Source: Minisyncoccia bacterium
Lineage (GTDB): Bacteria > Patescibacteriota > Minisyncoccia > Phycocordibacterales > Phycocordibacteraceae
Direction: 5' to 3'
Length of the DNA: 64,000 nt
Assembly: GCA_041485695.1 (NCBI GenBank)
Contig: JBGPJZ010000002.1
Coordinates: 1,499 to 65,498 of the forward strand
The position numbers and the translations under genes are program-made. The notes beneath the pieces were generated by a model. The model saw only the letters and a program-made list of their open reading frames with translations, did not search any database and was not told the origin of the DNA. Of this stretch, positions 18,499 through 44,140 are shown in pieces. Numbering within the stretch: the stretch's first letter is position 1; each line of letters begins with the position of its first letter.

Positions 18499-18900
18499 AT
18501 GAAAAACAAACTTATCTTGGTTTTCTTTATCTTCTCTCTCATTGGTTTCGCAGTTGGATACTATTTGCTTAAAATCTACGACTGCGAATATAGCGTATTT
18601 TGCTACAATCTTGCAACAAGGGCCTTCGCTCTCTACTACGGAATGCCTGCTCTTGCTCTAGTCTTTTCCATGCTGCTCTTCATCCCACGTGCGCTTGATG
18701 CATGGAAGAAGTTTGCAATATGGTTTGTACCGCTTGCGGCTTTACTCTTTATTTTCTATCCAGAACCCGGCTCTGGTGACTTATTCTCGCCTTATCCCGA
18801 GCAAATCTTTCAATGGGTCAGTGCTCTATATGTCGTGGTAAGCGTCGTCATTATTGCGATTGTATCGTTACGTACATCAGAGCCGTTAACTAATCGGTAA
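18499..18900 (+). CDS. Membrane protein (3-4 TM), hypothetical
   Basis: 133 aa, hydrophobic, with a Cys-containing loop. Confidence 0.35.
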   Translation: MKNKLILVFFIFSLIGFAVGYYLLKIYDCEYSVFCYNLATRAFALYYGMPALALVFSMLLFIPRALDAWKKFAIWFVPLAALLFIFYPEPGSGDLFSPYPEQIFQWVSALYVVVSVVIIAIVSLRTSEPLTNR

Positions 18901-20481
18901 CTCAACGATGAAGCGAGAGCCTTTGCCAGGGCCGTCGCTTTCGGCCCAGATTGTGCCCCCATGCCCTTCAACGAGCTGTTTCGCGACGTAGAGCCCCAAG
19001 CCCGTACCGGTAGTGTTCACTTTGTTCGCGCCCCTGGCGCGCGTGAACTTCTCAAAGAGGCCACCTATCTCCTCCTTCGGGATGCCTATGCCGGTATCTA
19101 AAATAGTGACGCGCGCCTTACCGTTTTCGCCTTTTACGGCAACCGTCACGCGCCCCTTTTCGGTGTATTTGATGGCGTTATCGACGAGGTTTGAAATGAC
19201 TTGTTTTATCTTGCCTACGTCTGCAGTCACCTTGAGCGCATCGGATGTTTCAAGCGTGAGGGCAAGGCCGCGCCGCTCGGCCACAGGATGCAATTCTTCA
19301 ACCGTTTTTTTAGTCACATCGGCAAGGTCGAAACTGCTCTTTTCATACTTCATCCGCCCCTGTTCGATGCGCGAGATATTCAAATAATCCTCAATCGAGT
19401 TGGCCATGTTGCGTGCCGAGTCGTTAATGCGCGACAAGGGCTCACGCATCTTTTCTGACGTTTCGCCATAATCCCCCTGCAAGATAAGCGAGGCGTAGCC
19501 TCGTATCGCCGTAATCGGCGCTCGCAGTTGGTGTGAGGCAATCGACAAAAACTCACTTTTCGCCTGATCAAGCTCCTTTAATTTCTCGTTCGCAATCTCG
19601 AGATTGAAAGTATCTTGGACAATCTTGATGCTCCCCAAAAGGATGATGATGAAGGCGGCGATATTAATAGCTACCGCACTGACGTTTGTCGAGTATACGA
19701 TATTCACAAAACTGAACACGGTCACCATAAAACCTAGGAACGCCGTGGCTGCGACTTTCAAGTTAAATAAATGGTGGCGATAAATCGCATATGAAATAAG
19801 TGCAACGAACGGGAGAATAAATAGTGCGGCAAGAGGAATGAAGCTCACATTGGCAAATACATTTGGCAAAATCACGTTGAAATTAAGAATGAGAATGGCC
19901 ATGACCGTCATTCCTATGGATACAGCCGTAATCTGCCTGCGTTCAGATAACTCCATTGTCTCGCTTCTCTTTTTAAACAAGAAAACGATGCTCGCAATCA
20001 ATAGCCCAAAGGCAAGAAGCATGAAAAGGAGGACCCCAGGAGCAGGATCCGCCCGTGTTACCTGGCCAATGGGAGCAAGCGACGCGATACCTGAAAAGAC
20101 GAATGGTGTGAGCGTTAGGATAGCGACAGCCCCCACCGCGGGAACGAGAACCCACTTATACCAATGTGGGAACACTACTTTTTCTTTAGGAAATACGTAG
20201 GCGAACTGGAAAAAGATGAAGGCATATAAAGTCGAGAAAAAGAGATGGAACCTGAGCGCCCACAAAATGCCATTGACAGTAGTAAACCTGTATTCAAGAT
20301 AGTTGGAGATGCTCCAAATAACGGTAATGACTGCGAAAGCAAAAAAAGTCTGGTTGGTTATGCTGGTGCGATTATTAAAAAGGATAACCGCGCCAAGTAG
20401 CGTTATGCCAGCGATAGCTACACCGACGCTCAAAAGATCAAGATTTATCTGAACGAGCTGACTAACGCCAGAGATGCCCAT
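18886..20481 (-). CDS. Sensor histidine kinase with polytopic N-terminal membrane domain
   Basis: About 8 TM helices, then a HisKA H-box (SHQLRAPITAIRGY) and an HATPase_c domain with N-box NLVDNAIKYT, DTGIGIP and GTGLGL. Confidence 0.85.
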   Translation of the reverse strand: MGISGVSQLVQINLDLLSVGVAIAGITLLGAVILFNNRTSITNQTFFAFAVITVIWSISNYLEYRFTTVNGILWALRFHLFFSTLYAFIFFQFAYVFPKEKVVFPHWYKWVLVPAVGAVAILTLTPFVFSGIASLAPIGQVTRADPAPGVLLFMLLAFGLLIASIVFLFKKRSETMELSERRQITAVSIGMTVMAILILNFNVILPNVFANVSFIPLAALFILPFVALISYAIYRHHLFNLKVAATAFLGFMVTVFSFVNIVYSTNVSAVAINIAAFIIILLGSIKIVQDTFNLEIANEKLKELDQAKSEFLSIASHQLRAPITAIRGYASLILQGDYGETSEKMREPLSRINDSARNMANSIEDYLNISRIEQGRMKYEKSSFDLADVTKKTVEELHPVAERRGLALTLETSDALKVTADVGKIKQVISNLVDNAIKYTEKGRVTVAVKGENGKARVTILDTGIGIPKEEIGGLFEKFTRARGANKVNTTGTGLGLYVAKQLVEGHGGTIWAESDGPGKGSRFIVELPIS

Positions 20482-23822: not shown

Positions 23823-24902
23823 TTAGGAATCTTTCTTGGGTCTAATCGTCACAGTGTCCACAAGCGGGAAGCGGACGGCCTGTGCTGAAGGCGGCTCGCC
23901 CTTGCCGACACGAAACATGAATGCGAGGTGACGATCTCCCGCTTTGAAGATATCTACGGCTACTTGGTACGCACTTAGAATCGTGTCTTTTTCTTTTGTT
24001 GAAAAGTCGCTACCCTCCCCTCCTTTAATTTTGAGCTTGAAAAAGAGTACACCCGTCATCGGTTGAAATGAGAGGCCAAGCGAGGTCGCGATGAGCCAGA
24101 GCCGCTCTACTGCGCGGCCTACTTTTACAAAATCGATTGGCTCTGTCCCGCTAACCGTGAGGCCGCCGATAGCACTCGCGGCCGCATTCGTCACCCCGTT
24201 TTGAATAGCCACGACTCGATTGAAACCGAGGACTAAGAACAGGCGCATGATGCCCCACTTCTTAAAAAGCCTAAACATTATCTGTGCGGGTGGCGGTAAC
24301 TCGAGCGTCTTGATATAAAAACCGATTTTCTTTTTGTCATCCTCTTCTTTTGTCCAATTTATATGACTAAAGAAAAAGCTGTGGAGCGACTGGTTCGCAA
24401 GCATGACCTCTTCGTTCGTCGAACCGACGCGCCCCAGGCACCTAATATCTTCAGGAGCCTCTACGAGCGTCAAAGCACCTTGCCCGGCGGCCATAAGTGC
24501 CTGTCGCGCTTCGCTCGAAAGAGGCTCCTTACCGTACGGCTTACGATTTGAGACGCGCTTAAAAATAAAGAATGTAAGTGGGTCGGGCTTTACGGTCGAA
24601 TCTTTTGTAAGAGTGAGCGTCGCAACATGGTACTTGTCAGTTGAGTTGGGGAAGTATGCGACATCTACTCGATACCCCTTGCCGCTTGCGGCAATAATCA
24701 TATTTTCTATTGCGGCACCATTAGCGAGATAGGAGCCCCTTTGACCCCAACCGTAGGCAGATTGATCTCGCTCTGGTAGTACATGAACTTCGACAGTGTT
24801 GGCCAACACGACAAAATGCCAGGGCTGACAATTCTCCCCCGAGGGGGCCTGACTCCCCGCCACCAGAATGCGTTCAAGCTCCTGGGAGAGGCCAGAGATC
24901 AT
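23823..24902 (-). CDS. Nitroreductase-fold (SagB/McbC-type dehydrogenase-like) protein, apparent tandem two-domain form
   Basis: N-terminal APSGENCQPWHFVV (canonical nitroreductase FMN-binding motif); a second RxSNRKPY-type start near residue 115; 359 aa is long for the fold. Confidence 0.65.
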   Translation of the reverse strand: MISGLSQELERILVAGSQAPSGENCQPWHFVVLANTVEVHVLPERDQSAYGWGQRGSYLANGAAIENMIIAASGKGYRVDVAYFPNSTDKYHVATLTLTKDSTVKPDPLTFFIFKRVSNRKPYGKEPLSSEARQALMAAGQGALTLVEAPEDIRCLGRVGSTNEEVMLANQSLHSFFFSHINWTKEEDDKKKIGFYIKTLELPPPAQIMFRLFKKWGIMRLFLVLGFNRVVAIQNGVTNAAASAIGGLTVSGTEPIDFVKVGRAVERLWLIATSLGLSFQPMTGVLFFKLKIKGGEGSDFSTKEKDTILSAYQVAVDIFKAGDRHLAFMFRVGKGEPPSAQAVRFPLVDTVTIRPKKDS

Positions 24903-26083
24903 AGGCCGAATATTTTGGCAAAGTCTGCAGCAACTTGCTTGCGATGCGCTACTGATTCTGGACTGTTGTAGTCGGGAACGAGTTTCTCGTCCATAGATAT
25001 GAGTGCGCGATTGGCTTCAAGTGGCTGGCCATTCAAAATTTTGCGTGCACAATAGGCGACCGCCACACCGTTAATCATGGCGGCACCACCTAGTTGAGGC
25101 CACGACACTATGGTCTTGCCCATTTCTTTAAGTGAGTTTTGCATTCGCTCGGTAACGTTCTCTGGGGCCACGTGCTTCGTGATCATCTTGCCGATGCCAA
25201 ATTTATCTAAATTCTTTAACATGTCGTACGAAACTTCACCCATGCGTCCGTGGAAAAACGGCATGTCTGGCTCAAGGTCGTAACGCTCGATGTCGACTAC
25301 TGCATTGTCGCCATTATCTGCCGCCATAAGAACGGGGATGTGGTGCTTTTTTGCCTGTTCACGAATCAAATATTTCACCGCGAGATTGTCGAGCTCGTCG
25401 ATAACAATGTCGAGGTCGCTACAAAATGCCTCTATGTTTTCTGGATTTAACCCTTCTGAGTGTAGTTCGACTTCTGCGTATGGGTTGAGCTCATAAATCG
25501 TACGTGCTGCAATCTCAACCTTAAGTACGCCGAGCCGATCTGCGCCAGCGAGGATACGGTTCGTATTCGTAAGCGCCAGCCTGTCCATATCGGCGAGTTT
25601 CAAGCGCTTCCCTCCCCCCTGCAAAACAATTGCAAACGCTACTGAAGAGCCGACCGAGAGGCCACCGATACCTATAGTCGCGTTATAAAATTTCTCTTGC
25701 TCCCCTTTCGTAATCAGGTTCTCATTACGTGCCGTACGCACAAGCTGAAACTCCTCTTCAGGCAGGATATGCGTCGCTAAATACCGCCAGGGGAAGTAGG
25801 CCCAGCGACCGTCTTGCCAAAGCGGCTTCTGCGCAGAAAGGGTCTTGAAGTATGTCGCAAATTCCTCTTTAAACGTCGGGGTGTAGACGTGCGAAGGGTT
25901 GCGAATGCCAAAAAGCTCGAGCTGTTGCTCTTCGTAATCGTCTGATATCTGCTTGATTGCACCCGAGGCAATGAGCTCCTCAAAGCGGGTGCGGTCTGCC
26001 TCTAGAGATAGATCAAGGATGACTGGGACGGAGGCGGTGGAGGCCTCCTTTAGCTTGTTTAATTTCCCTTCAAGAGAGTCCAT
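24899..26083 (-). CDS. ThiF/MoeB/HesA (E1-like) adenylyltransferase-family protein with ~130-aa N-terminal extension
   Basis: Nucleotide-binding GIGGLSVGSSVA and ADMDRLALTNTNR (E1 D-x-D…NR signature). Translationally coupled to the nitroreductase gene (4-nt overlap). Confidence 0.7.
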   Translation of the reverse strand: MDSLEGKLNKLKEASTASVPVILDLSLEADRTRFEELIASGAIKQISDDYEEQQLELFGIRNPSHVYTPTFKEEFATYFKTLSAQKPLWQDGRWAYFPWRYLATHILPEEEFQLVRTARNENLITKGEQEKFYNATIGIGGLSVGSSVAFAIVLQGGGKRLKLADMDRLALTNTNRILAGADRLGVLKVEIAARTIYELNPYAEVELHSEGLNPENIEAFCSDLDIVIDELDNLAVKYLIREQAKKHHIPVLMAADNGDNAVVDIERYDLEPDMPFFHGRMGEVSYDMLKNLDKFGIGKMITKHVAPENVTERMQNSLKEMGKTIVSWPQLGGAAMINGVAVAYCARKILNGQPLEANRALISMDEKLVPDYNSPESVAHRKQVAADFAKIFGL

Positions 26084-26111
26084 ACCCCCATATTACCACC
26101 ACCCCCTGTAG

Positions 26112-27683
26112 CTATTCTTTTGAGCGAATGACCCACTTTTGCTTAATGCCTGGGTGGAAATATTTCGGGTGCTCGTGGGGCCAAAACGTGATTTTCGGGA
26201 TAACCTTCTCACCCATTGCGCTCAAATTGTTCTGGTACTCGGCACTATTACGTGCAAGGCTTTCGACGACCGCAGCGACAACTGTTTTTTTCAAGTCATC
26301 GGTAGCCTCTTGCTTTGCTTGAAGCTCTATATTGAGTTCAAGATACTCGTTGTGCTTCGAGTCATGTTCGGTCGTCATCGTGAAGCGGCCAGTGATAGAG
26401 CGTTCGAGCTCTGACTTTTGGAGCCCGATTTTTACATGCTCAGGAAAAATGATGGCGCCGTAGAGCTTAACCGAGAGGTCCGAGCGTTCATACACATATA
26501 CAAAGGGGAGCTGGTGCACTGTCTCTGCGATACCGGCGCGTTTAATCTCTGCCCCAAGATTAATGCCGGCATCTTTAGCTGCCTCTTGTACCTCAGTAAA
26601 AGTAAACACCCCACCTTGATCCCCGATGTCGTAGCGAATAAAGGGCAACACGGTACCATCGGTCGCGTAGATGCGACCATCTTCGCTTTCTTCAAACGAA
26701 ACGAAGCTCGGGATGTATTGCGCAAGGGTCGGGAGCCGATGCGCCTCCTTAAAAATCTTGCGATAGAAGGTGTCGTTCTTGAGTGCGAGGCGGCGTACGA
26801 GTATCGAGAGCGGCGTCTCGGTCGCCATAGTACCGAGCTCCGCACTCCCGTAGATGTTCATGACACTGCGGTACGGATCCTTGGCCCCTGTCTTTTGCAT
26901 CAAATAATCACGGAAATGTTCTGAAAATGCCTCTGCAGCACAGACGATGCGGACATCCCACCGCTTCCATTCCACACCGAACAACGGGCCATCATCAATA
27001 AGATCCTTCATAAAGGGCGGGTAGCCGCAGAGTATGAGCTGATCGTACGAGGGCGCGATGTGCGTAAGAGCCTCGAAAATCTCCTTTTTATTAACGCCCG
27101 GGGTAATAACCGTGAGCGGGCGGCCGTCTTTAGAGATTCGGCGGAATGCCTCGTAGGTCAAAAGCCCCCCTATCCACACGCCCATGCCAAAACAAACGAC
27201 CACCAAGGTCGACTTTTTTGGGTCAAGACCGCTCCGCTCTACGAACAGGCGGTGGTAGAGCATTGACTGCTCATGTACGTCATCAGTGCGCGGGATGTAG
27301 AACGGCTGACCAGTTGAACCAGAGGTGGAGGTCATCACGAGAGGTTCATGAGTGAGAGCTCCCGCTACACAAAGCTTATCCCACGGATGCACGCGCAAAT
27401 AATTTGTTTTAGAAGTGGGTGGAATCTTCTGTAAATCTTTAACGGTACGTATCTCCGTGCCATCGACGCCCATCTGCCCCAAGAATTTCCGATAGCCTGG
27501 TACGTTTTTGAAAGCGTTTTTGAAATGCTTGATTATTGCTGCGTTTTGAACGCGTACCCAATCAGCACTGTCGTTCATGGTCAATTCTGCAAGAAAAGCT
27601 GCAGGGGTTGACACTTCCCGCTTCGCTACCTTGGTTTTATGCGCCACCGGGCGAGTTTTCATTGAAAACGAACTATACCACAC
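26112..27683 (-). CDS. Adenylate-forming enzyme of the PaaK / coenzyme F390 synthetase / LuxE-like family
   Basis: TSGSTGQPFYIPR (ANL P-loop-like motif), overall PaaK-like length and order. True start possibly at internal Met MNDSADW. Confidence 0.6.
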   Translation of the reverse strand: MWYSSFSMKTRPVAHKTKVAKREVSTPAAFLAELTMNDSADWVRVQNAAIIKHFKNAFKNVPGYRKFLGQMGVDGTEIRTVKDLQKIPPTSKTNYLRVHPWDKLCVAGALTHEPLVMTSTSGSTGQPFYIPRTDDVHEQSMLYHRLFVERSGLDPKKSTLVVVCFGMGVWIGGLLTYEAFRRISKDGRPLTVITPGVNKKEIFEALTHIAPSYDQLILCGYPPFMKDLIDDGPLFGVEWKRWDVRIVCAAEAFSEHFRDYLMQKTGAKDPYRSVMNIYGSAELGTMATETPLSILVRRLALKNDTFYRKIFKEAHRLPTLAQYIPSFVSFEESEDGRIYATDGTVLPFIRYDIGDQGGVFTFTEVQEAAKDAGINLGAEIKRAGIAETVHQLPFVYVYERSDLSVKLYGAIIFPEHVKIGLQKSELERSITGRFTMTTEHDSKHNEYLELNIELQAKQEATDDLKKTVVAAVVESLARNSAEYQNNLSAMGEKVIPKITFWPHEHPKYFHPGIKQKWVIRSKE

Positions 27684-28526: not shown

Positions 28527-29585
28527 ATGAAAACGCTCTATACTGAGCAGATGGCTGTCCCACAAAGAATCTTCGTAGCAATCGCCTTGGCGGGGCTCCT
28601 TGCCCTGCCCTTTTCGGCCATGGCGGCAACGAAAACATCAGCCTACCACCCTGTACGCTTGTTTTATTATACCGACGGCAAGGTAGCGAAAAAAGATTTC
28701 TTCGCGCACGCAAGCTCAATCGACATCTTCGCGCCGCAGATATACCAGATCGAGCCTGACGGCACCCTAAGCGGCACCCTAAACCAAGACCTCATCGACT
28801 TCGCTAAAAAACACAAGATTAAGATCATGCCGCTCGTAACGAATGACGGTTTTAGCTCAAAGGGCCATGAAGCGCTCCTTGAAAGCACCTCGACACAAGC
28901 GCTTGCCTTAAATGCTCTCGTCACTGAAGCCAGAAATAAAGGCTATGCCGGGTGGCAGTTCGACTTTGAGCAGATGGATGCGAGCTACCGCGACAAATTC
29001 TCGACGTTTATTACGCGTGCGGCCGAAGCTTTTAAGCAAGCGGGACTTACCTTAAGTGTCGCGGTTGTGGCCAAGACCTCTGATAACCCGAGCGATTACC
29101 CGAACGACCTCTGGCAAAAGCTCATCGGCGCGTACGACTATGATGCCCTCGCGAAGAGCGCCGATTTCATAAGCGTGATGAGCTACGACGACCCGACCTC
29201 GCACGGCCCCTCCGTACAGTTTGCTTGGTTACAAAAAGTCCTTACCTACTCGCTTGCGCATATACCAAAAGAGAAGTTGTCTCTCGGTCTCGCCCTCTAC
29301 TACTGGGCGCGAGATACGGCGACCGGCAAGCTTATCGGCATCGGCGGTAATGAGACCATCGATAGGATTTTCGCCAAACGGAAGGTCGTCGTTACCTATG
29401 ACACCGTCAACAGGATGCCGGTCTTGCATTACCAGGCCGACGGTACGCTCTACTCGCTCTGGTATGAGAACGCGCGAAGCATCAAAGAAAAACTCGCGCT
29501 TGTTAAAACGAACAAGCTCTATGGCTTTTCAGCATGGTCGCTTGGTCTCGGAGTACCAAGCGTCTACAGTACGCTACGCAATTAA
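28527..29585 (+). CDS. Secreted glycoside hydrolase family 18-like protein (chitinase/YaaH-like)
   Basis: Signal-like hydrophobic segment; GH18 catalytic-motif variant GWQFDFEQ (DxxDxDxE); overall (beta/alpha)8 length. Confidence 0.6.
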   Translation: MKTLYTEQMAVPQRIFVAIALAGLLALPFSAMAATKTSAYHPVRLFYYTDGKVAKKDFFAHASSIDIFAPQIYQIEPDGTLSGTLNQDLIDFAKKHKIKIMPLVTNDGFSSKGHEALLESTSTQALALNALVTEARNKGYAGWQFDFEQMDASYRDKFSTFITRAAEAFKQAGLTLSVAVVAKTSDNPSDYPNDLWQKLIGAYDYDALAKSADFISVMSYDDPTSHGPSVQFAWLQKVLTYSLAHIPKEKLSLGLALYYWARDTATGKLIGIGGNETIDRIFAKRKVVVTYDTVNRMPVLHYQADGTLYSLWYENARSIKEKLALVKTNKLYGFSAWSLGLGVPSVYSTLRN

Positions 29586-31108
29586 ACAAAACCCGGGAAA
29601 AAGTCTGTTTTGATGTGGCGCTTCGGAATATCCATGTCGGCGAGGATTTCCTCAAATGCGGTAACCATGCCGTGGGGGCCGGAGAGGTAGAAGGTGCACT
29701 CTGCAAAATCAGGCACTTCCCTCTTAATGACGCCAGCCGTAATCGCCGGCACTGCGCTCGGAAGTTCTTGCGGCACGGCGCCCGGGTCAGTAAACGCGTA
29801 CACTGTCTTTATGCCGAGCTTCTCCTTGGCAAGAGCCAGCATCTGGTGATACGCGACGTCAGCGGGCGTCTTATTCGCATAAAAAAGCGTAATGGGACGA
29901 ACTTCTTGGGTATCTAAGAGATATTGTATTTGGCTCCGAAAGGGAGTAATGCCGATGCCGCCTGCGATAAAGACGAGCTTCTTCTTTATATCTTTGGGCA
30001 GGACGAAGTTTCCGCCTAGTTGAGAGGCGATGATGGTGTCGCCCGGCTTCATGGTGAGCAGACGTTTTTTAAAGGTGCTCCCGTTTTGGTAAAACTTTAC
30101 GCCGAGCCGTAATTCGTGCTCGGTGGGAGACGACGCTATCGTAAAGAAACGCCGGATGCCGCGCGTGTCGGGCCACGCATGAGCTAGTGTCCATTCGAGA
30201 TACTGCCCTGGTTTAAATAAGAGCGGTTTTTCGCTTGTGAATACTAAGTCGAACGTGTCTCGGGTAAGACGTGCCCGCCCTTTCAAGGTCAAAATGAGTT
30301 TGCGCTTAGGGCTTACGAGGTACGAAAAGGCGTTGCCGACCAGGAGCGCAAGCTCGGGGGTTGAGTAGATCGACCCGAGGTGCACAAACGGCGCGAAGAG
30401 GAAGCCAACCAACCCGCCATAGGTTATGCGGAGCAACTTTGAGGGCGGCGTGGTAAAGGGCTCGGTAAGCATCACCGATGCAAAGAAAATTAAGGGCGCA
30501 GTGACAAGGCCGCTGTTGAGGGAGGCGAGAACATTCCCGCCGACGCTTACCGCGCGAGCCATGATACTGATAAGCGCGACGATGAAGAATGCCCAAAAGA
30601 GATCGAGCCGTCGCATCTTATGGATAACGAGGAAGCCGCCGACGATGACGAACGGCAGCATGACCCCTGTGCCGACCCACCAGCTCGCTCCGAGGCCGAG
30701 CGCGAGCGAGGTTGCCGCAACACCGAATGCCGCCGGATTAAAGAGGTGTTTTTTGCCGATGGCAAGGATATATTTCGACCCCGTCGAGAGAGCCGCCGCC
30801 CATCCGGCAAGAATCAAAAATCGAGCATCGACGTACGAAGAGGGCGGCGCAATGATGAGCGCCAAAATGAGAGCGGTGATATAGAGAGATTCTGGGTTCG
30901 AAGGTGCTCTAAATGCCCACGCGAAGGCTTTGTTAACTACCCACGAGACAGCAAGCAGGTAGACGATCGAAAGCGCGAGGAACTGCGGTAAGAAAGGGAG
31001 CTGACCGAAATACGAGAGGGACTCGGCAACGATAAGTAAAAAGATCAGCTCGTATAAGGCGAGCCGATACATCGTGATTCTATCGACGACGGAATCAATC
31101 CATTTCAT
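29582..31108 (-). CDS. Membrane-bound oxidoreductase: polytopic N-terminal domain fused to ferredoxin-NADP+ reductase-like FAD/NAD(P)-binding domain
   Basis: About 8 TM helices (residues 1-260) then the FNR signatures RRFFTIASS (RxYS-type FAD site), GGNFVLP and GGIGITP (NAD(P) site). Confidence 0.6.
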   Translation of the reverse strand: MKWIDSVVDRITMYRLALYELIFLLIVAESLSYFGQLPFLPQFLALSIVYLLAVSWVVNKAFAWAFRAPSNPESLYITALILALIIAPPSSYVDARFLILAGWAAALSTGSKYILAIGKKHLFNPAAFGVAATSLALGLGASWWVGTGVMLPFVIVGGFLVIHKMRRLDLFWAFFIVALISIMARAVSVGGNVLASLNSGLVTAPLIFFASVMLTEPFTTPPSKLLRITYGGLVGFLFAPFVHLGSIYSTPELALLVGNAFSYLVSPKRKLILTLKGRARLTRDTFDLVFTSEKPLLFKPGQYLEWTLAHAWPDTRGIRRFFTIASSPTEHELRLGVKFYQNGSTFKKRLLTMKPGDTIIASQLGGNFVLPKDIKKKLVFIAGGIGITPFRSQIQYLLDTQEVRPITLFYANKTPADVAYHQMLALAKEKLGIKTVYAFTDPGAVPQELPSAVPAITAGVIKREVPDFAECTFYLSGPHGMVTAFEEILADMDIPKRHIKTDFFPGFV

Positions 31109-31854
31109 GCTGTGCGGGTATACGCATCAAAACCGCTCGTCATGGTAGCAATCCCTTGTGGGTCGATAGCGTACGCTTCAAAGCCAGGAAGCCGTTCGAG
31201 AAACTCGAGCCCTTTCATCCCCATGGCAAACGCGGCGGTTGCAAATCGGTCCGCCTCAAGCACATCAGGGCCGATGACCGTAAGGCTCACGATGTCGTCT
31301 ATAACAGCGTTGGGGGCATGCGGGTCGTAGATATGCTGGCCGCGAATATAGGTGCCCGAGGTGGCTACCCCTGAACCTCGCGGATAGATGACTTTCACGA
31401 TTTGATCTCGATTGAACGGGTTCCGAATGCCGACGTTCCACTCCTCACCCTCGGCATTCTTGCCATTTGAAGCGATGTCGCCGCCCGCATCGACATAAAA
31501 ATCTTCAAACCCCCGTAAACGCAACATCTCGGCGGCGTTCAGTATCGCCCAACCCTTCACCACGCCCGAGGGGTCGAGCGTGCCATCAGATTTTTTGATA
31601 TCAAAGTAACCACCGGTTTCTTTTTTTGTCTTCTCTGCTAGTTTGAAAATCTCTCGCATGTCGTCACTGCACTCCTCCTTCACAAGCTCGCCCCGGTTAA
31701 TTCGCATGATTTCGCTCTCGGGTTTGTAGGTGCTGAACCGCTTATCAACTGCGATAAAATATGAAAAGACTTCTTCTAGGCCCTCTTCGGTCGCCAACGC
31801 ATCCGCAATGTCGACCGTGATGGGCATGCCCATGATGTCTTTCGTGGCGCGCAT
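31105..31854 (-). CDS. apbE: FAD:protein FMN transferase (ApbE family)
   Basis: ApbE signatures VKGWAI, YVDAGGDIASNG and ATSGTYIRGQHIYDP; overlaps the downstream oxidoreductase gene by 4 nt. Confidence 0.8.
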   Translation of the reverse strand: MRATKDIMGMPITVDIADALATEEGLEEVFSYFIAVDKRFSTYKPESEIMRINRGELVKEECSDDMREIFKLAEKTKKETGGYFDIKKSDGTLDPSGVVKGWAILNAAEMLRLRGFEDFYVDAGGDIASNGKNAEGEEWNVGIRNPFNRDQIVKVIYPRGSGVATSGTYIRGQHIYDPHAPNAVIDDIVSLTVIGPDVLEADRFATAAFAMGMKGLEFLERLPGFEAYAIDPQGIATMTSGFDAYTRTA

Positions 31855-31857
31855 GCG

Positions 31858-32460
31858 TTATACCTTTGCCTTCGCGAGCGCCGAGGCGAGCGACTCGCGA
31901 AAGGCGATGCTCGAATCGGTCGCACCCGAGATAATATTGACAGAGGCGTTTTGGGCTGTAATCGCCTCCTGCTTCAAGTACGGCATAGCTTGGCTGTTAA
32001 TCTCGCGCGAAGTACTGCGATCGTTCGGGTATTGCAAAAATCGTACGTCCACGATTTTCCCTCCCGAAATGATGGTCTCGACTTGAATGAGCCCGTAATA
32101 CGCGTCGGCTACGGTGCCTACAAAAGTGCCGTCAGCATATTGGCCTACTGGTTTAGGTGCAGGCGTTGGCGCAGGTGCCGGAGCAGGAATAGCGACTGGA
32201 GCGGGAGCGCTTACAGAACCTCCTTCATTTTCCGAGTCGCTAGACCCCTCCCCCCGCCCTTCGTCGCTGCCCCCCGTGATTACGGGCGAAGGAGGAGCGG
32301 CAGTGGGAAGCGTGGCATTTGTCACCCCAGTATTTGAGATTGCTCCGCTTGGTGCTGGCGTCAGGCCCGTCGCAGAGGCAACGGGCCCGTAGAGGTGCTG
32401 GTAGAGGGCTTGGGCCGCGAAAGCGGACACGAAAACAAACGAGAATAGAGCCTTCCTCAT
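31858..32460 (-). CDS. Secreted FMN-binding domain protein with an ApbE flavinylation motif
   Basis: Signal peptide; Pro/Ala-rich linker; FMN_bind-like domain DGTFVGTVADAYYGLIQVETIISGGKIVDV…; IISGATDSS contains the [S/T]GA[T/S] Thr-flavinylation motif used by ApbE. Confidence 0.65.
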   Translation of the reverse strand: MRKALFSFVFVSAFAAQALYQHLYGPVASATGLTPAPSGAISNTGVTNATLPTAAPPSPVITGGSDEGRGEGSSDSENEGGSVSAPAPVAIPAPAPAPTPAPKPVGQYADGTFVGTVADAYYGLIQVETIISGGKIVDVRFLQYPNDRSTSREINSQAMPYLKQEAITAQNASVNIISGATDSSIAFRESLASALAKAKV

Positions 32461-32496
32461 TGCCTCTATAGTACGCTTAAATGGCCTAATAGTTGC

Positions 32497-32524
32497 AAAA
32501 ACCGCCCTCTCTGGCGGTTTTTGC
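32497..32524. terminator. Bidirectional intrinsic terminator
   Basis: AAAAACCGCC-ctctct-GGCGGTTTTTGC: GC stem flanked by an A-tract and a T-tract. Confidence 0.7.
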
Positions 32525-32642
32525 TAACTTGTTGCGGGGGGCCGACTTGCACGGCCATCTCGAGGTTATGAGCCTCGCGAATTACTATTACTCTACCCCG
32601 CTATCAGCCGCAGTATAGTGGCGAAAAATACAAATTGCAAGA

Positions 32643-33212
32643 TTAGATAAATCCGAATTCGCGAAAGACGAGCTCATAGCGCGCCATGGTGCGGCGTGCG
32701 AGCGTCTCAGAGAGGTCGAAGGCCGAGCCATTGTGGGCAATTTGATTACGCACTTTGTGCGCCTCCCACGCATCTTGAAGCGTATCGAAGTCGGAGGGCT
32801 CGACTTGCTTCAGCTTCTCCCCCACCCCGTCGCCCGAGTAGCCCTGCCGCGTGAGCATCTCATCAAGGATGATGTCGGCTTCGATGATGGCCTGGCGCCA
32901 ATCAGAAGGCTCCTTGCTCGCCATCAAGGTCTCGATGTGTTCCCAGCGGGCATTCGGTCCCGAAGTCTCTTCGGAGACGTGGATTTCGCCGAGCTGCTCT
33001 TCTTCGCGCTTTCGCAAATCATAGATCTTCACCATCGCGTACGTGATGAAGAGGAGGCCGAGGACGATAACGATGTAGCCTATCCACGTAATCCACAGCC
33101 AGATCGATGCAAGAAGCGTTCCCCAATTGCCACCGACGGCGCAACTGCCAGTGAAGCATTCGTAAATGACACGGAACCAGTATTCGAGATTGATGCCGGT
33201 CTCATTGCCCAT
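32643..33212 (-). CDS. Membrane-anchored hypothetical protein with C-terminal Rx4H motif
   Basis: Two N-terminal TM helices, then a soluble helical domain ending …WEAHKVRNQIAHNGSAF. Confidence 0.4.
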   Translation of the reverse strand: MGNETGINLEYWFRVIYECFTGSCAVGGNWGTLLASIWLWITWIGYIVIVLGLLFITYAMVKIYDLRKREEEQLGEIHVSEETSGPNARWEHIETLMASKEPSDWRQAIIEADIILDEMLTRQGYSGDGVGEKLKQVEPSDFDTLQDAWEAHKVRNQIAHNGSAFDLSETLARRTMARYELVFREFGFI

Positions 33213-35015: not shown

Positions 35016-37605
<2,590 letters not shown>

Positions 37606-37615
<10 letters not shown>

Positions 37616-38247
37616 GGCGAAAGGTAATCAGTAAGAACGATCGAATTCGTTACCCCATGGTAGGTCCATGACACGGTCGATACCACTTCGACCTCTGGAC
37701 CGAAGCTATAGAACCGGAGCGATCGAGTAAATAAAGGGGCGCCTGAAGCCGTAAGCGTGTACTGCCCGCCCGAGAGGTAGAGGGTTGGACACGAGTTCAC
37801 CGATGGACAGACCTGGAGTGCCTTGCCAGACCCGATACCAATCGCGAATGAAGGGTCAAGCGCACAGGCAACCGTACCGTCACCTCCCGGAGAACCCCCA
37901 GGATTACTGATTGCATTATAGGGATTGCCTTCGCATCCATAAATCGAAGTATCCACCCCGCTCACGCCGTTGGTAAAGTCATCATAGAACGCGGTCGACG
38001 AGAGATCGGCGACGTTGTTCTGGTAATCGGCGAGATAGGTATTATCGCGGAGCATTCGGACATATTCGATGCCCTCTTGAGCCAGATACGAGGCCATCAG
38101 GCGGTTCTTAGAATCGACCGCGGCGAGGTATGAGCGTACTGAAGACGAGAACGGCCCCGCTATCGCAACCGTAACGAGAGCAGTCGCAACCAAGGCCTCA
38201 ATCAAGGTGAATCCCGTCCTTTTGCATGTAGACAAGGCTGGGATCAT
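37606..38247 (-). CDS. Type IV minor pilin-like protein
   Basis: Prepilin motif RTGFTLIEALVATALVTVAI. Confidence 0.65.
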
Positions 38248-38807
38248 ATATCGATGCCGCGCGTCGTCGCTGCCGACTCGATCGAGAACGAAAACGTCTG
38301 TCCTTTCCCTGCGACGGCAGTCCCTGTTATGGTCATGCGCACAAAAGGCTGCGTATAGTTCCCTGCGCCAGTCCCAGCCGAGCCGGTAAGGTAAAACGCG
38401 AGCGACGTGATGTTGACTCTCGTGTCGGTGAGCGAGAACGAGCTGCCTGCAACTGTTTCCCGGATGTAGCCATTCACCCCGCCCGCGGCCGGCACAAAGG
38501 TGTAGGTGATATTCTGACCGCCCGCATCGACGAACGAAAAGGCGGTGCCGCCCACACAGTCAGTGCCAGCAGCAAGGCATCCGTACCCCGAACCGGTACG
38601 AATCGAGCGGGTCATATTTTCAAACACGAAAGAAATATTATCGGCAGCGAGCGCTGTCGCTTGGGCATGCGCATTGAGGTCGATTATCACCAGGTACGCG
38701 CCGGCGGAAAGTGTCATAATAACTGCAAAGATGCCCACCGACACGAGAAGCTCGACGAGCGTAAAGCCCTGAGAGAGGTGGCGCTGGCGGGGGGAGGTCA
38801 TGGGCAA
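38244..38807 (-). CDS. Type IV minor pilin-like protein
   Basis: Prepilin motif SQGFTLVELLVSVGIFAVIM. Confidence 0.65.
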   Translation of the reverse strand: MPMTSPRQRHLSQGFTLVELLVSVGIFAVIMTLSAGAYLVIIDLNAHAQATALAADNISFVFENMTRSIRTGSGYGCLAAGTDCVGGTAFSFVDAGGQNITYTFVPAAGGVNGYIRETVAGSSFSLTDTRVNITSLAFYLTGSAGTGAGNYTQPFVRMTITGTAVAGKGQTFSFSIESAATTRGIDI

Positions 38808-39484
38808 GTTGAGGTGGCAGAGATTTCGCCCACCTGATTAACGAATAGGGAGCGAGTAGCGCCCTCGGGGCTCGAGACCTTGACGCATGCCACGGTAAAG
38901 GGGACTCCGCCAGTCGTCGTCGCACCCGCCCCTACATTCCCCACTCCAAAGACCGCCGTCGTGTTGGGGCGCGTGAAGACGATTGAAAGATGCTGGGTCG
39001 AGTTCGCTCCACCGGTCTTGCAGTACGATGTGGCGGGCATAAGAGTGAAAGCGCAGAAATTGCTTATTTCCATTCTGTTATTCAGCGTGAATGTTTGCAC
39101 GAGGGAGTCAGCGCCAGAAATAAAATAGCCGTTGCCGGGGGTGCAATTGGGCCTGACGCACGCCGCCGCCGGATCGGTGTCCGCAAAAAAGACGAACGAG
39201 CCCGGGGCGGCACTGTCGAAGTCGAGGCCATACCCGGCATTGCTCACGACCCCGATCGTACGGCTCCCGATGCCGTAGATCTGGGCATTGCGAAGAGTCA
39301 GGGCGATGTCTGCGGCTGTGGTCGAAAGGAGGATCGTACGGCTAAACGAGCTCTGGCCTAGGATGACGACGATGCTTAAGACGGCGATGATGGCAGCAAC
39401 GACCACTAGTTCGACAATGGTGAACCCAGCACTCACGCGCCGAAAGCGCGAAAGAGAGAAGCGACGAGTGCGAAAGCGTCCCAT
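38798..39484 (-). CDS. Type IV minor pilin-like protein
   Basis: Start at internal Met MGRFRTRRFSLSRFRRVSAGFTIVELVVVAAIIAVL. The 116-aa upstream ORF extension is Arg/Cys-rich junk overlapping pilD and is rejected. Confidence 0.6.
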   Translation of the reverse strand: MGRFRTRRFSLSRFRRVSAGFTIVELVVVAAIIAVLSIVVILGQSSFSRTILLSTTAADIALTLRNAQIYGIGSRTIGVVSNAGYGLDFDSAAPGSFVFFADTDPAAACVRPNCTPGNGYFISGADSLVQTFTLNNRMEISNFCAFTLMPATSYCKTGGANSTQHLSIVFTRPNTTAVFGVGNVGAGATTTGGVPFTVACVKVSSPEGATRSLFVNQVGEISATSTCP

Positions 39485-40215
39485 GAGGTGAAGTGTGCGA
39501 GAAGGAAGCCGGCCGCCAGATATGGGGCGAACGGCACCTCGCTCTCTATGGTAGCGCCGAGTGCCCTTCGCGCCAATAGGATTATCCCGATAACCCCGCC
39601 GATCCAAAACGAGAAGATGAGGCCAGAGAGCGCAAGCGGCGAACCAGCAAGGAGAGCGAGCCCGAATGCTAAGGGAGCGTCGGCAAGCCCCATCGCGCGC
39701 CCGGAGGAGGCAAGGTGCACTGTCGCCAACAAGGAACCGAAAAGAAGCGCTGTACAGACAGTGAGTGCGAGTGCAATCACGGAGGGAGCTGCGGCTACCG
39801 CCACGTAGGCCGCGCAAGCTACAAATAGCCACAGGAGAGTGGGCGGCAAGATGGAATGGGCTAGGTCATAGAGTACGAGCCCGGTGAGGAGGACAAGCGC
39901 GAGCAAGAGGCCGGGGAGTACGGGCGAGAGACCGACCTTGAGGTAACTAAGTGCGAAGAGCGTCCCGAGCATCACCTCAGCGAGAGTTGATGTAGGAGAG
40001 ACTCGCACCAAGCAGGTACGGCAACGCCCGAGGGAGATGAGCCACGAGAGTATCGGGATGAGCGCTAAGGGAGAGAGCGTTACACCGCAGGCATCGCAAT
40101 GCGAGCGCCCTCGCACGAGCGGCGCGCTGGTATACAAGCGCGCCGCTATGAGCCCGATAAAGCTCGCGGAGATGGCGCCAAGTACGAAAAACAACCCCGC
40201 GGTAAGCGCAGCCAT
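39433..40215 (-). CDS. pilD: Prepilin peptidase (A24 family)
   Basis: Polytopic membrane protein with an N-terminal tetra-Cys motif CDACGV…CRTC and aspartate-containing loops. Start placed at Met after the upstream pilin stop. Confidence 0.75.
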   Translation of the reverse strand: MAALTAGLFFVLGAISASFIGLIAARLYTSAPLVRGRSHCDACGVTLSPLALIPILSWLISLGRCRTCLVRVSPTSTLAEVMLGTLFALSYLKVGLSPVLPGLLLALVLLTGLVLYDLAHSILPPTLLWLFVACAAYVAVAAAPSVIALALTVCTALLFGSLLATVHLASSGRAMGLADAPLAFGLALLAGSPLALSGLIFSFWIGGVIGIILLARRALGATIESEVPFAPYLAAGFLLAHFTSWDAFALVASLFRAFGA

Positions 40216-40217
40216 CC

Positions 40218-40709
40218 CTAGCGCACCGTACACGGAACGCACGCGTTCCCGACAATAGGTGTCGCCAAATCTCCCGCGTTGCCATCGTTCCCACACTTGA
40301 GACCAGTCGAATCAGCGCACCAGAACTTTGAGCTTGCACCCCCTGGCCGGGTCACTGCAACGGCATATTCGGGAGCGGCCGAGATACAGAACGTGGACCC
40401 GCCTGCCGAGGCCTGGAGCGCTGCTGCAATTGCGGCCTCTACGTTCGGGTCATGAAAGACCGAGTTACCGGAGACATCACCCGGCAAGGGGCACGGAGCT
40501 GGGCTACCGCCCGCGTCGAAAGCGTCGTAGGTCTGGCCGTTGTCATAGAAGAGGGTCGCTTGGGTTGCAACCGTACTCACGTTTGCTTTTATAGCGGCGT
40601 CATCCCCCTTCCCGCGCGCGGTGTTGAGGGAGGCGAGCACAACCGCCGCAAGAATACCGATGATGGCAATCACGACGAGGAGCTCGATTAGGGTAAATCC
40701 CTTTCTCAT
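40218..40709 (-). CDS. Type IV major pilin paralogue 3
   Basis: MRKGFTLIELLVVIAIIGILAAVVLASLNTARGKG; C-terminal Cys pairs. Confidence 0.8.
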   Translation of the reverse strand: MRKGFTLIELLVVIAIIGILAAVVLASLNTARGKGDDAAIKANVSTVATQATLFYDNGQTYDAFDAGGSPAPCPLPGDVSGNSVFHDPNVEAAIAAALQASAGGSTFCISAAPEYAVAVTRPGGASSKFWCADSTGLKCGNDGNAGDLATPIVGNACVPCTVR

Positions 40710-40722
40710 AGGTGAGATAAAA

Positions 40723-41208
40723 TTAAGGACAAGCGGTGGCATTCGCTCCTAAATAGGTAGCCGCGGGGGACGCTTTCGAGACCCCGGCGCTGTCTACGCA
40801 CCACATATTTGCGGGATTAGATTTGAGAGGAGCCTCTGCCGCCCAGGCATTGGCAGTGGAGTGGCAGGTAACCTTCCCCGAAGCACCAGGTGTAGCGATA
40901 GCGATAACCACCGCGCCAGCATTCGTTATGCTTGCGGCGGCGCTCAGCATGTCACCAAGCGGCTTTGTCGAGCCTATGGCAGTGGTACCGCACACATCGT
41001 GCGTCGCATCAATAAAGTACTTATTGCCATTCGCGTCATAAAAGAGCTCCGCCTGCGGGCGGGTGGCTGCCATTTGGCTTTTAACTGTCGCATCGGCGCC
41101 TTTGCCGCGCGACGTATTCAAGCTCGCCAGCACTATCGCTGAAAGGACGCCGAGAATGGCAACGACGACCAGGAGTTCGATAAGGGTAAAGCCGCGTGGA
41201 AGAATCAT
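40723..41208 (-). CDS. Type IV major pilin paralogue 2
   Basis: MILPRGFTLIELLVVVAILGVLSAIVLASLNTSRGKG; C-terminal Cys pairs. Confidence 0.8.
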   Translation of the reverse strand: MILPRGFTLIELLVVVAILGVLSAIVLASLNTSRGKGADATVKSQMAATRPQAELFYDANGNKYFIDATHDVCGTTAIGSTKPLGDMLSAAASITNAGAVVIAIATPGASGKVTCHSTANAWAAEAPLKSNPANMWCVDSAGVSKASPAATYLGANATACP

Positions 41209-41310
41209 GTAGCTATCGTACCAGACCATTCCTGACAACGGCAAGAGAGAGCCTGGGGAGAACAAAAAGACCCCTTTTGGGGTCTTTTTGCTCCAAAAGA
41301 AAGACGGACT

Positions 41311-41778
41311 TTAGATACAAGCGGTGGCAGCCGCAAGCATATACGTACCTTCAGCCTTTGAAGCTCCGGTGCTATCAACGCACCACATACCGCCGGCCTT
41401 AATTGGAGCATCTACTACCCACGCCGATACAGGAGCGGCGGCCGTGTCGTGACAGGTAACCTGCGTCAGAGTACCTACTTGGGAAGGCGGGTTAGCTGAA
41501 GACAGCAAGTTTGTAGTAGCACCTGACGACGAGGCGGCTGCAGTGCGCATGTTTGAGAAACTGGCTGATGCGCAAAGACCGTTATATGTTGTGCCGTTAT
41601 CGTAGAAGATTTCAGCCGCCGCACGCATACTTGCCAACTGGCTCTTGGTCGCGGCGTCAGCACCCTTGTTACGGGCGGTGTTCAAGGAGGCCAAGACGAC
41701 GGAAGAAAGAATCCCAATAATGGCAATGACGACGAGAAGTTCAATAAGCGTGAAGCCGCGTGAGCGAATGTGTTGCAT
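41311..41778 (-). CDS. Type IV major pilin paralogue 1
   Basis: MQHIRSRGFTLIELLVVIAIIGILSSVVLASLNTARNKG; C-terminal Cys pairs. Confidence 0.85.
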   Translation of the reverse strand: MQHIRSRGFTLIELLVVIAIIGILSSVVLASLNTARNKGADAATKSQLASMRAAAEIFYDNGTTYNGLCASASFSNMRTAAASSSGATTNLLSSANPPSQVGTLTQVTCHDTAAAPVSAWVVDAPIKAGGMWCVDSTGASKAEGTYMLAAATACI

Positions 41779-41872
41779 AGTAAATCTATTGGTTAATGGA
41801 CGTAGTATACGCTACCTAGAGGGAGAGCAATACTGGGGTGTGGATATCCCTCTGCCTAGGGGGACAGGCCGC

Positions 41873-43078
41873 TTAGATAGCGCCTGCCATGTTGTAAATT
41901 GGCATAAGGATGGCAGCGAGGAGTGTACCGACCCCGAGGCCGAGGAGGACGATCATGAGGGGCTCGATAAGCCCAATCAGGGTATCGACCGCGTTGCTTA
42001 CTTCGCGATTGTAAAACTTGGCGAGGGTGATGAGTATTTTGCCGAGCTCGCCCGTCTCCTCCCCCACGCGCACCATGGCGACCATGATGCCCGGGATCTC
42101 TCCGTGGCGCGAGAGTGCGTCAGAAATGGCTGCCCCGCCCTTCACCGCCTCGGCAACCTCTTTGAGGATTTTGCTGTAGACAGAGTTCCCCACCACTGAA
42201 GCCGTGATGTCGAGCGCCTCTACGACAGGGACCCCGGAGATAAGCATAGTGGAGAAGTTGTCGGCGATGCGCGCGAGGAACAGCTTGTGGTAGAGGTCAC
42301 CCACGTACGGCACCCCGAGCTCTAAGGAGTCGAGGATGTACTTCCCGCCTGGGGTGCGTGAAAGCTGGAAGCCATAGGCGACGACCGCAAGAATCGCTAT
42401 CAAAACGAAAACGCCATAATGGAGGAAGAAATCCGAGAGCGCAATCACAATCCTGGTATAGATGGGCAGCTCTTGGCCAGAATCGAGCAATATCGTGGAG
42501 ATCTGCGGTACGACGTAGGTAAGCATGAGTATCATCACTGCGATAAAGACGCAGATGACGAAGGCTGGGTAGATGAGCGCGTTCTTAGCCTTCGTGACGA
42601 CCTCGTAGGTACGGTCGAGATAATCGGCAAGGTACCCGAAGGTTTCAGAGAGCTTGCCCGACTCTTCGCCGGCACGCACCATATTGACGTAAAAGGCGCT
42701 AAAGGCCGCCGGGTGCTTTGAGAGCGCCTTGCTGATGGGGCTCCCGCCCTGGAGATCGTCGGCAACTGAGGAAAGGATGCTCGCGAGGCGCTTATTCCCT
42801 ACCTCGCTTGCGAGGAGGCGAAAAACGCGTAGCGCCGAGACCTGCGCCTCGAAAAGGGTGGCTATTTGGCGTGAAAGGATGACGACGTCTTTGTTCTTGA
42901 TATGGGTGAAGATGTTTATCTCAAACGAGAGTCCGGCCTTCTTTTCGGGGGTGCTGATCGCAGAGATGACGAGGCCGCGACGCTGGAGCGCCGTCACCGC
43001 AACCTCTTGCGAGAGGGCCTCGATAGTGCCCTGCCGCTCGTGGCCGTCTTGGTCGATGGCTCGATACGTAAACAGCAT
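41873..43078 (-). CDS. pilC: Type IV pilus inner-membrane platform protein PilC (GspF family)
   Basis: 401 aa with two T2SSF repeats and three TM segments. Confidence 0.9.
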   Translation of the reverse strand: MLFTYRAIDQDGHERQGTIEALSQEVAVTALQRRGLVISAISTPEKKAGLSFEINIFTHIKNKDVVILSRQIATLFEAQVSALRVFRLLASEVGNKRLASILSSVADDLQGGSPISKALSKHPAAFSAFYVNMVRAGEESGKLSETFGYLADYLDRTYEVVTKAKNALIYPAFVICVFIAVMILMLTYVVPQISTILLDSGQELPIYTRIVIALSDFFLHYGVFVLIAILAVVAYGFQLSRTPGGKYILDSLELGVPYVGDLYHKLFLARIADNFSTMLISGVPVVEALDITASVVGNSVYSKILKEVAEAVKGGAAISDALSRHGEIPGIMVAMVRVGEETGELGKILITLAKFYNREVSNAVDTLIGLIEPLMIVLLGLGVGTLLAAILMPIYNMAGAI

Positions 43079-43080
43079 AG

Positions 43081-44139: not shown

Positions 44140-44140
44140 A

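Follow-up and report, generated by a model that had tools for sequence, protein, structure and literature searches.

A three-gene operon of a Minisyncoccia bacterium predicted to encode a compact NQR/RNF-like flavin-based electron exporter with a leaderless ApbE

We analysed a 64,000-nucleotide stretch, referred to here as the window, of contig JBGPJZ010000002.1 (positions 1,499 to 65,498 of the forward strand) from a Minisyncoccia bacterium (GenBank assembly GCA_041485695.1). Positions 29582..32460 of the window are the exact span of three co-directional minus-strand open reading frames (ORFs). These encode an FMN_bind partner protein of 200 amino acids (31858..32460, PF04205), an ApbE protein of 249 amino acids (31105..31854, PF02424), and a 508-amino-acid protein (29582..31108) with about 10 predicted membrane helices and a PF00175 domain of the ferredoxin-NADP+ reductase (FNR) type. 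The three genes form a genuine operon that is far beyond chance, since each protein has full-length homologues in the thousands and genes in this order are found again in different phyla. The same three parts had been listed by a sequence-only reading of this DNA, and the coordinates and Pfam matches bear that list out. The locus probably encodes an electron exporter of two subunits that spans the membrane and has a flavin transferase dedicated to it. Electrons taken from NAD(P)H would reach a covalent flavin that faces outward.

This arrangement has a published counterpart. The system named NQR/RNF-like was defined as an NqrB/RnfD-like N-terminal membrane domain fused to PF00175 within a flavinylation gene cluster, and 127 clusters were first reported (Meheust 2021, eLife, PMC8238504). 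A later study modelled a Ktedonobacter complex with AlphaFold-multimer, docked the partner on the extracytosolic face, noted that the flavinylation site of the membrane subunit is missing, and proposed that the covalent flavin of the partner reaches the flavin site of the membrane subunit (Huang 2024, mSystems, PMC11334425). Both papers noted the system in the candidate phyla radiation, and the only descriptions that we found, these two, come from the Light laboratory. Each element of the definition is present in the window: a membrane domain at the N-terminus with homology to NqrB/RnfD, a C-terminal NqrF-like PF00175 domain, and FMN_bind and ApbE genes within five genes, here immediately upstream in one operon. 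The flavinylated Thr of NqrB/RnfD is absent from the membrane domain, as specified in Huang 2024. Judged by its sequence, the locus is a member of this system and does not differ from it in kind, with the same fusion, an anchored FMN_bind partner, and an ApbE in the cluster. Both the published definition and the multimer model agree with an electron exporter.

The sequence-only reading had described an NQR/RNF-like covalent flavoprotein system, which is literally the published name, and its functional reading largely holds. Its claim of a novel fusion of a transmembrane domain to FNR does not: Meheust 2021 (PMC8238504) had already defined the fusion, Huang 2024 (PMC11334425) had modelled it, and it occurs in 323 clusters. 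The system was described in 2021 and 2024 and is hence not new, and it is widespread. The text of neither paper contains three of the present observations. ApbE is leaderless and shortened throughout the cassettes, the site that is missing corresponds to a deletion of some 80 residues that takes out a whole five-helix linker, and the family is far larger than 127 clusters and is also found in Mesorhizobium/Kaistia and Spirochaetota.

The membrane domain of the fusion protein (residues 1-268, 30305..31108, minus strand) was identified by profile, alignment, and fold. Its approximately 10 predicted helices lie within residues 1-265. PF03116 (NQR2_RnfD_RnfE) is sub-threshold in the window protein (21.1 bits vs 27.7) and is matched by 27 of 32 close relatives, with a best E of 4.5e-10. 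A profile of the membrane domain retrieved a single PDB chain, the RnfD chain 8ahx_D (E 2.7e-4), and hhalign aligned the domain with E. coli RsxD over residues 141-260 (E 9e-6). An AlphaFold2 model of the domain, with a predicted local distance difference test score (pLDDT) of 82, keeps the two inverted repeats of five helices that make up this fold. In a fold search of the PDB, the 15 best matches of the model were all RnfD or NqrB chains (prob 1.0, template modelling score 0.52-0.68), followed at much weaker scores by the urea and ammonium transporters, which are known fold relatives. These searches required the membrane domain by itself. A single-sequence PDB search with the whole fusion returned FNR-family chains only and no RnfD/NqrB, and the matches that Foldseek gave for the full-length model came predominantly from the FNR domain. 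Given the profile, hhalign, and fold results, the domain is a genuine, though divergent and remote, RnfD/NqrB homologue. The earlier guess of an RnfD-like (PF03116) membrane part was therefore correct.

The domain differs from RnfD in one large deletion. In RsxD, 93 residues lie between FNPA (121) and GWQW (218), and they include the flavinylated SQAT187. The window fusion has 14 residues between FNPA (123) and SWWVG (142), and the [ST]xA[ST] motif is absent from residues 1-268. An outer loop of about 80 residues, the five-helix linker that carries RsxD T187 (T153 in Clostridium tetanomorphum, Ct), is thus deleted. In the C. tetanomorphum Rnf structure, this linker bears the covalent flavin mononucleotide (FMN) and caps its outer-leaflet pocket (Vitt 2022, PMC9588780). 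A distance of 7.7 A separates this FMN from the riboflavin of RnfD, which lies on the cytoplasmic side, and RnfC is on the cytoplasmic face (PMC9588780). Ct Asn124 and Asp248, which have been proposed for riboflavin/Na+ binding (PMC9588780), map to N124 and E216 of the window protein by motif through two pairwise alignments, via RsxD, and both positions are invariant in the family. The alternation of K/R-rich loops predicts that loop 138-150 is outside and that a segment with six K/R residues (266-280) and the FNR domain are inside.

These residues also bear on whether the RnfD/NqrB-like domain, as electrons pass through it, translocates Na+ or H+ in a coupled manner, as in RNF and NQR. RnfD/NqrB is regarded as a Na+-translocating subunit (PMC9588780), the two inverted five-helix repeats are retained here, and the invariant N124 and E216 correspond to proposed residues of a cytoplasmic Na+ site. 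However, the other proposed Na+-path residues, Ct Asn90 and Glu185, are unconserved in the family, and Asp248 also binds riboflavin, so that its conservation may reflect the flavin site only. RnfA/E (NqrD/E) are absent from the operon. In addition, the published gating of the channel relies on the semiquinone and conformational changes of the five-helix linker and the covalent RnfD FMN, both of which are missing. We regard ion pumping as improbable; if it did occur, the locus would provide a minimal redox-driven ion pump for a fermentative cell of the Patescibacteria type.

The remainder of the fusion, residues 269-508 with the stop codon (29582..30304, minus strand), is an FNR-type domain for flavin adenine dinucleotide (FAD) and NAD(P)H. 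PF00175 matches with 42.9 bits, and PF00970 reaches 19 bits, just below its cut-off. The motifs RRFFTIAS (319), GGIGITP (383), and YLSGP (474) are in place, as is the C-terminal DFFPGFV. The best PDB profile matches are the FAD/NADH domains of NqrF (E 1.7e-16), and Foldseek with the full-length fusion model gave prob 1.0 to FNR-family structures. The strand FYANKTPADVAY is presumably like those of NADH-specific b5 reductases and nitrate reductases, and the preferred donor may be NADH or NADPH. The polytopic membrane protein with a cytoplasmic FNR module, as read earlier from the letters, is supported, and the nearest solved relatives of the module by profile are NqrF domains.

The locus might instead be a degenerate remnant, in which the membrane domain and the ApbE have both decayed and have no redox function. 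The sub-threshold PF03116 and PF00970 scores of the window fusion would fit such decay, as would an ApbE about 55 residues short of the solved ApbEs. Set against this, the ORFs are intact, the catalytic and cofactor motifs are kept, 86 columns are invariant among 32 fusion homologues at 53-62% identity, the same shortened forms are conserved across phyla, and the AlphaFold2 models are confident. Conservation already contradicts decay, which we find barely credible.

The partner protein matches PF04205 (FMN_bind) with 27.2 bits (cut-off 22). By hydropathy and inspection, residues 1-24 (32389..32460, minus strand, like the partner features that follow) are a signal-anchor or signal peptide, made up of MRK, 17 hydrophobic residues, and AQA|L. 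An 80-residue linker rich in Pro, Ala, Gly, and Ser follows (residues 25-104, 32149..32388), and then the FMN_bind domain (residues ~105-200, 31861..32148) and a standard TAA stop codon (31858..31860). Residues 112-198 align to PDB 8P2A (E 2e-12), the crystal structure of SaFMN3-D2 with FMN covalently on a threonine (PMC10339131). The SGAT of the partner (178-181, in the context NIISGATDSS) falls on the SGAT of that flavinylated domain, and Tyr122 aligns with its flavin-stacking Tyr14. An ApbE target threonine had been proposed in this protein, and the alignment agrees: Thr181, the last residue of SGAT (codon 31918..31920), is the predicted FMN phosphoester site.

These features are general among the homologous partners in 54 loci. 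A [ST]GA[ST] motif about 22 amino acids from the C-terminus is found in 53/54, and the N-terminus is a conserved MKKxxLS followed by a hydrophobic segment, which resembles the uncleaved anchor of NqrC/RnfG more than a signal peptide that is cut off. No lipobox Cys was found at the N-terminus of the window partner. The protein had been described earlier as secreted, a description that needs amending, since a membrane-anchored protein is likelier than a freely secreted one. BLASTP of the partner against E. coli RsxG gave nothing significant, and its kinship to RnfG/NqrC is therefore drawn from the Pfam family and the literature.

Divergent relatives of the cassette in Saccharibacteria, Uhrbacteria, and Microbacteriaceae have a small membrane-anchored partner without a Pfam match upstream of ApbE. 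One example is the ORF at 4678-5157 of related locus L080, and there are 13 similar ORFs (among them L043:4464-5093, L070:4339-4947, and L078:4561-5154). In place of SGAT, these proteins end ...[VI]SGSSLT.xGFNDA...IK..A. They seem to represent a variant of the FMN_bind type that has escaped recognition and whose putative acceptor motif differs.

The ApbE protein matches PF02424 with 142.6 bits (E 2e-41, cut-off 25.6) and PDB structures of ApbE up to E 7e-21. In the alignment, Tyr43 corresponds to the FAD-stacking Tyr60 of E. coli ApbE, a residue that marks the FAD-binding transferase class (PMC4767422). Ser166, His174, and Asp202 correspond, via alignment to E. coli ApbE, to the V. cholerae triad Ser241/His257/Asp285, and the His-to-Asp spacing of 28 residues is that of E. 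coli ApbE. The protein is accordingly the ApbE that had been read next to the partner gene, with its catalytic residues intact, and it is predicted to be an FAD:protein FMN transferase. Relative to solved ApbEs, it is without about 55 residues of the helical insertion domain (E. coli 105-158).

The N-terminus of this ApbE is unusual for an enzyme with an exported target. The protein begins MRATKDIMGMPITV, and its ORF is not extendable upstream, since only 3 nt separate the ATG from a preceding TAA in the same frame. No signal peptide or lipoprotein/secretion signal was found in it; such a signal is usual in the ApbE family, though some members do without one. The window protein and the ApbEs of 52 related loci share a conserved 'mini' form of about 247 amino acids that is leaderless and lacks the ~55 insertion-domain residues. 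All 52 of these close relatives begin M[KR]xT[RK]xxMGMP, and no hydrophobic extension is available upstream; in 37/52 the ORF can be extended by at most 2 residues. The 16 ApbEs of a divergent subgroup (roughly 290 amino acids) also lack a hydrophobic N-terminal extension. Being leaderless, the cassette ApbE is predicted to be cytoplasmic although its partner is exported, and ordinary extracytoplasmic flavinylation, which had been assumed for this locus, is not what the sequence predicts. Text searches of Meheust 2021 (PMC8238504) and Huang 2024 (PMC11334425) found no mention of a leaderless cassette ApbE, and searching the literature for ApbE in combination with Patescibacteria gave no result.

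A read-through product or split fusion of FMN_bind and ApbE, which would carry ApbE outside, was considered and rejected in view of the standard TAA stop. The two genes share a frame in the window, where TAA-CGC separates them. A shared frame occurs in only 10/51 loci, which counts against a read-through fusion, and no fused FMN_bind-ApbE homologue was found among the ApbE homologue matches.

A leaderless ApbE could also mean that the FMN_bind domain and its flavinylation are both cytoplasmic, with the membrane domain feeding, for example, a quinone or simply anchoring the flavoprotein. The absence of a hydrophobic N-terminal extension from the 52 close and 16 divergent cassette ApbEs, together with the 37/52 ORFs that have almost no room upstream, speaks for this. 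Cytoplasmic ApbEs with cytoplasmic targets are also known, as for the fumarate reductase of Klebsiella (PMC12052999). The topology of the partner points the other way: an N-in/C-out orientation is favoured by the MRK/MKK start, the hydrophobic helix and then neutral or acidic flank behind it, and the long linker of Pro/Ala/Ser/Thr. The vacated flavin pocket of the RnfD-like domain is in the outer leaflet, and the published multimer model docks the partner extracytosolically (PMC11334425). An entirely cytoplasmic arrangement thus seems to us a poor candidate. As for a quinone, Patescibacteria are not known to make any.

For the electron exporter, we infer the cofactor content, the direction of electron flow, the acceptor, and the site of flavinylation in the cell as follows. 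NAD(P)H would reduce FAD in the cytoplasmic FNR domain, and FAD would pass electrons to a flavin that is bound non-covalently. This flavin would occupy a site of the riboflavin type in the RnfD/NqrB-like membrane domain, on its cytoplasmic side. From there the electrons would move to the FMN phosphoester on Thr181 of the membrane-anchored partner. Deletion of the five-helix linker would leave an outward-facing pocket where the FMN of the partner can dock. The partner flavin would then reduce an extracytosolic acceptor, with Fe(III) or another metal, or O2 or another oxidant, as candidates. In effect, this would be the NADH-side half of RNF (RnfC-RnfD-RnfG) as two polypeptides, with the FNR domain replacing RnfC.

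Descriptions of Patescibacteria (the candidate phyla radiation) usually have them without electron-transport chains. With a widespread and compact device for carrying electrons from NAD(P)H out of the cell, they could regenerate the oxidised cofactor, reduce metals that are to be taken up, or handle oxidants, and the device would be the simplest known derivative of RNF/NQR. The locus offers concrete details in the Thr181 site, the deleted five-helix linker with its open outer flavin pocket, and the N124/E216 pair. Its significance is modest and rests on how prevalent the system is among minimal bacteria and on the puzzling mini-ApbE, whose uniform lack of a leader challenges the assumed extracytosolic maturation route.

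Several points weigh against the exporter. No acceptor or partner oxidoreductase gene adjoins the operon in the window, where its neighbours are a GH18 gene and a tRNA gene. The window fusion is below the Pfam cut-offs for PF03116 and PF00970. The riboflavin-site residues were placed by motif through two pairwise alignments rather than from a cofactor-bound structure of the fusion. ApbE is leaderless in every cassette examined while the FMN_bind domain of the partner is predicted to be outside, a real inconsistency with the usual periplasmic maturation route, and the published model gives no account of how the Thr is flavinylated (PMC11334425).

One way around this inconsistency would be for the mini-ApbE to flavinylate the partner in the cytoplasm, before or during export. 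ApbE is able to modify 7-residue tags, which makes it conceivable that the C-terminal segment of the partner is flavinylated before export. The position of the acceptor Thr, about 20 residues from the C-terminus, adds to the plausibility of this route, which would remove any need for FAD export. In its fullest form, this idea makes the quinone- and cytochrome-free complex the main reductant outlet of Patescibacteria, possibly coupled to ions via the RnfD-like domain. We consider that combination quite unlikely; if it were true, organisms thought to be purely fermentative would possess a minimal respiratory-like device.

Comparison with characterised systems shows what the locus is not. It shares with RNF (RnfABCDEG) the RnfD fold, the conserved residues mapped to the riboflavin site, a predicted RnfG-like covalent-FMN subunit outside, and a predicted NAD(H)-binding module on the cytoplasmic face. 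However, the operon lacks RnfA/E/B and Fe-S clusters, has a fused FNR domain instead of RnfC, and encodes an RnfD-like domain without its own covalent FMN and linker. Electron flow is presumed to be one-way and outward, and any ion pumping is hypothetical. With Na+-NQR (NqrA-F), the locus has in common an FNR module that most resembles the FAD/NADH domain of NqrF, a membrane domain of the NqrB type, a partner of the NqrC type, and reliance on ApbE; it differs in having no 2Fe-2S ferredoxin domain of NqrF, no NqrA/D/E, and no evident quinone site. In NQR, moreover, NqrF docks near NqrD/E rather than on NqrB. Genes for RnfA/RnfE (NqrD/NqrE) and for RnfB/RnfC (NqrA/NqrF) were found neither in the operon nor in the scanned flanks. 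Since RnfA/E/B/C and a covalent FMN on the RnfD-like domain are missing, the locus is not a canonical RNF or NQR.

Flavin-based extracellular electron transfer (EET) in Listeria (Ndh2, EetA/B, FmnA/B, PplA, DmkA/B) follows the same logic, moving electrons from cytoplasmic NADH to an ApbE-flavinylated extracytosolic FMN_bind protein in a single-membrane cell. In contrast to the window system, its membrane step uses a type II NADH dehydrogenase (NDH-2) and demethylmenaquinone, PplA and FmnB are lipoproteins, and no Listeria component is homologous to the fusion, while the window ApbE is leaderless. Without an NDH-2 or a lipoprotein FmnB/PplA, the locus is not a Listeria-type EET system, and no quinone-biosynthesis gene was found among the scanned ORFs of the window. 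The likeness to Listeria suggested by the sequence-only reading is therefore an analogy only. The cytoplasmic ApbE of Klebsiella pneumoniae that matures fumarate reductase is also without a signal peptide, but its target is a soluble cytoplasmic enzyme, whereas the target in the window has an N-terminal export or anchor signal.

The fusion protein has thousands of full-length homologues at 53-62% identity, and those with names are mostly from Parcubacteria, Kaiserbacteria, and Paceibacterota. A search with the membrane domain alone yields 323 clusters (50% identity, E<=1e-30), the majority of them made up of proteins of ~500 amino acids. A scan of species-representative genomes found the fusion in many Patescibacteria classes and also in Ktedonobacteria and other Chloroflexota, Mesorhizobium and Kaistia (Alphaproteobacteria), Spirochaetota, and Microbacteriaceae. 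The order FMN_bind, ApbE, fusion is kept in 50 of 82 distinct related loci, with examples in Patescibacteria, Chloroflexota, Alphaproteobacteria, and Spirochaetota (52/84 before removal of duplicates, L002 and L004 being duplicate contigs of L001 and L003). In these conserved operons, the gaps are typically 1-7 nt or the genes overlap. The window operon is as tightly coupled, with a 4-nt overlap of the ApbE and fusion genes and 3 nt from the FMN_bind stop to the ApbE start.

The genes next to the related cassettes give weak hints about their role. Two-component systems adjoin the cassette in 20/80 related loci, ECF (extracytoplasmic function) sigma factors are near it in 5, and heavy-metal P-type ATPases in 4. 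VIT1 is near it in 3 loci (e.g. L042:3501-4250), and so is Nramp (L067:7509-8795, L070:7509-8795, and L015:7654-8901), with its start ~20 nt (L067 and L070) or ~135 nt (L015) past the fusion gene. An MsrA-MsrB pair is near the cassette in 3 loci (e.g. L005:8987-9932), and thiol-redox genes occur elsewhere too. None of these types of neighbour was found beside the operon in the window.

Such neighbours raise the possibility that the architecture is that of the exporter and that its role is specifically to reduce Fe(III) or Mn for divalent-metal uptake, as opposed to getting rid of surplus reductant in general or protecting against oxidants. The VIT1, Nramp, P-type ATPase, ECF sigma, and two-component genes fit this role, as do the six clusters with VIT1 reported in Meheust 2021 (PMC8238504). 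However, metal-gene links are seen in a minority of loci and are lacking in the window (GH18, tRNA, and gatCA), and the MsrA/MsrB and thiol-redox neighbours elsewhere point to other roles. We think a dedicated role in metal uptake unlikely for this locus.

The immediate surroundings of the operon in the window were also inspected. The 70 nt upstream (32461..32530, minus strand) contain a hairpin and T-run past a tRNA-Met gene and a GAGG ribosome-binding site 4 nt before the ATG, all of them predicted by inspection of the sequence. A promoter may lie in this region; a consensus scan found no sigma-70-like site there, and the sole site that it found is upstream of the tRNA. Promoter and terminator scans inside the operon gave nothing beyond the shuffled expectation. 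The tRNA-Met gene itself (32531..32602, minus strand) has its own promoter-like site and a hairpin with a T-run, and beyond it lies a predicted membrane protein of 189 amino acids (32643..33212, minus strand) with no Pfam or NCBIfam match. On the other side, a GH18 (chitinase-like) gene (28527..29585, plus strand) is convergent with the fusion gene, and the two 3' ends overlap by 4 nt (29582..29585), which leaves no space for an intergenic terminator. gatA and gatC lie further away, as identified from translations only. A Pfam scan of four flanking ORFs (28527, 27926, 26112, and 32643) gave GH18 or no match, and a motif scan of the window found no other credible [ST]GA[ST] flavinylation target.

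Other features of the window lie further from the operon. A low-GC island at 50181..58284 (minus strand; GC content 0.47-0.50 against ~0.56 in its flanks) is an unusual multi-swivel-domain kinase cluster. Its central ORF of 1605 amino acids (51724..56541) has a PPDK_N ATP-binding domain (E 6e-98) and three PEP-utilizers mobile domains, and the flanking ORFs of 513 and 572 amino acids each end in one PEP-utilizers domain, the latter with an N-terminal helix-turn-helix. A trio of consecutive genes at 23823..27683 (minus strand), also of lower GC, encodes proteins of 359 amino acids (with only a short N-terminal nitroreductase match), 394 amino acids (ThiF/E1-like), and 523 amino acids (without a Pfam match), and could be a peptide-modification or adenylation cassette. 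A low-GC stretch (~0.46) carries a histidine kinase with a seven-transmembrane sensor (HisKA_7TM; 18886..20481, minus strand) and an LCAT/alpha-beta-hydrolase protein of 798 amino acids (16092..18488, plus strand). Finally, a type IV pilus block typical of Patescibacteria occupies 37052..48982 (minus strand), with PilM (47900..48982), a PilB-like ATPase (44550..46340), a PilT-like ATPase (43081..44457), PilC (41873..43078), and several ORFs with pilin-type N-methylation motifs.

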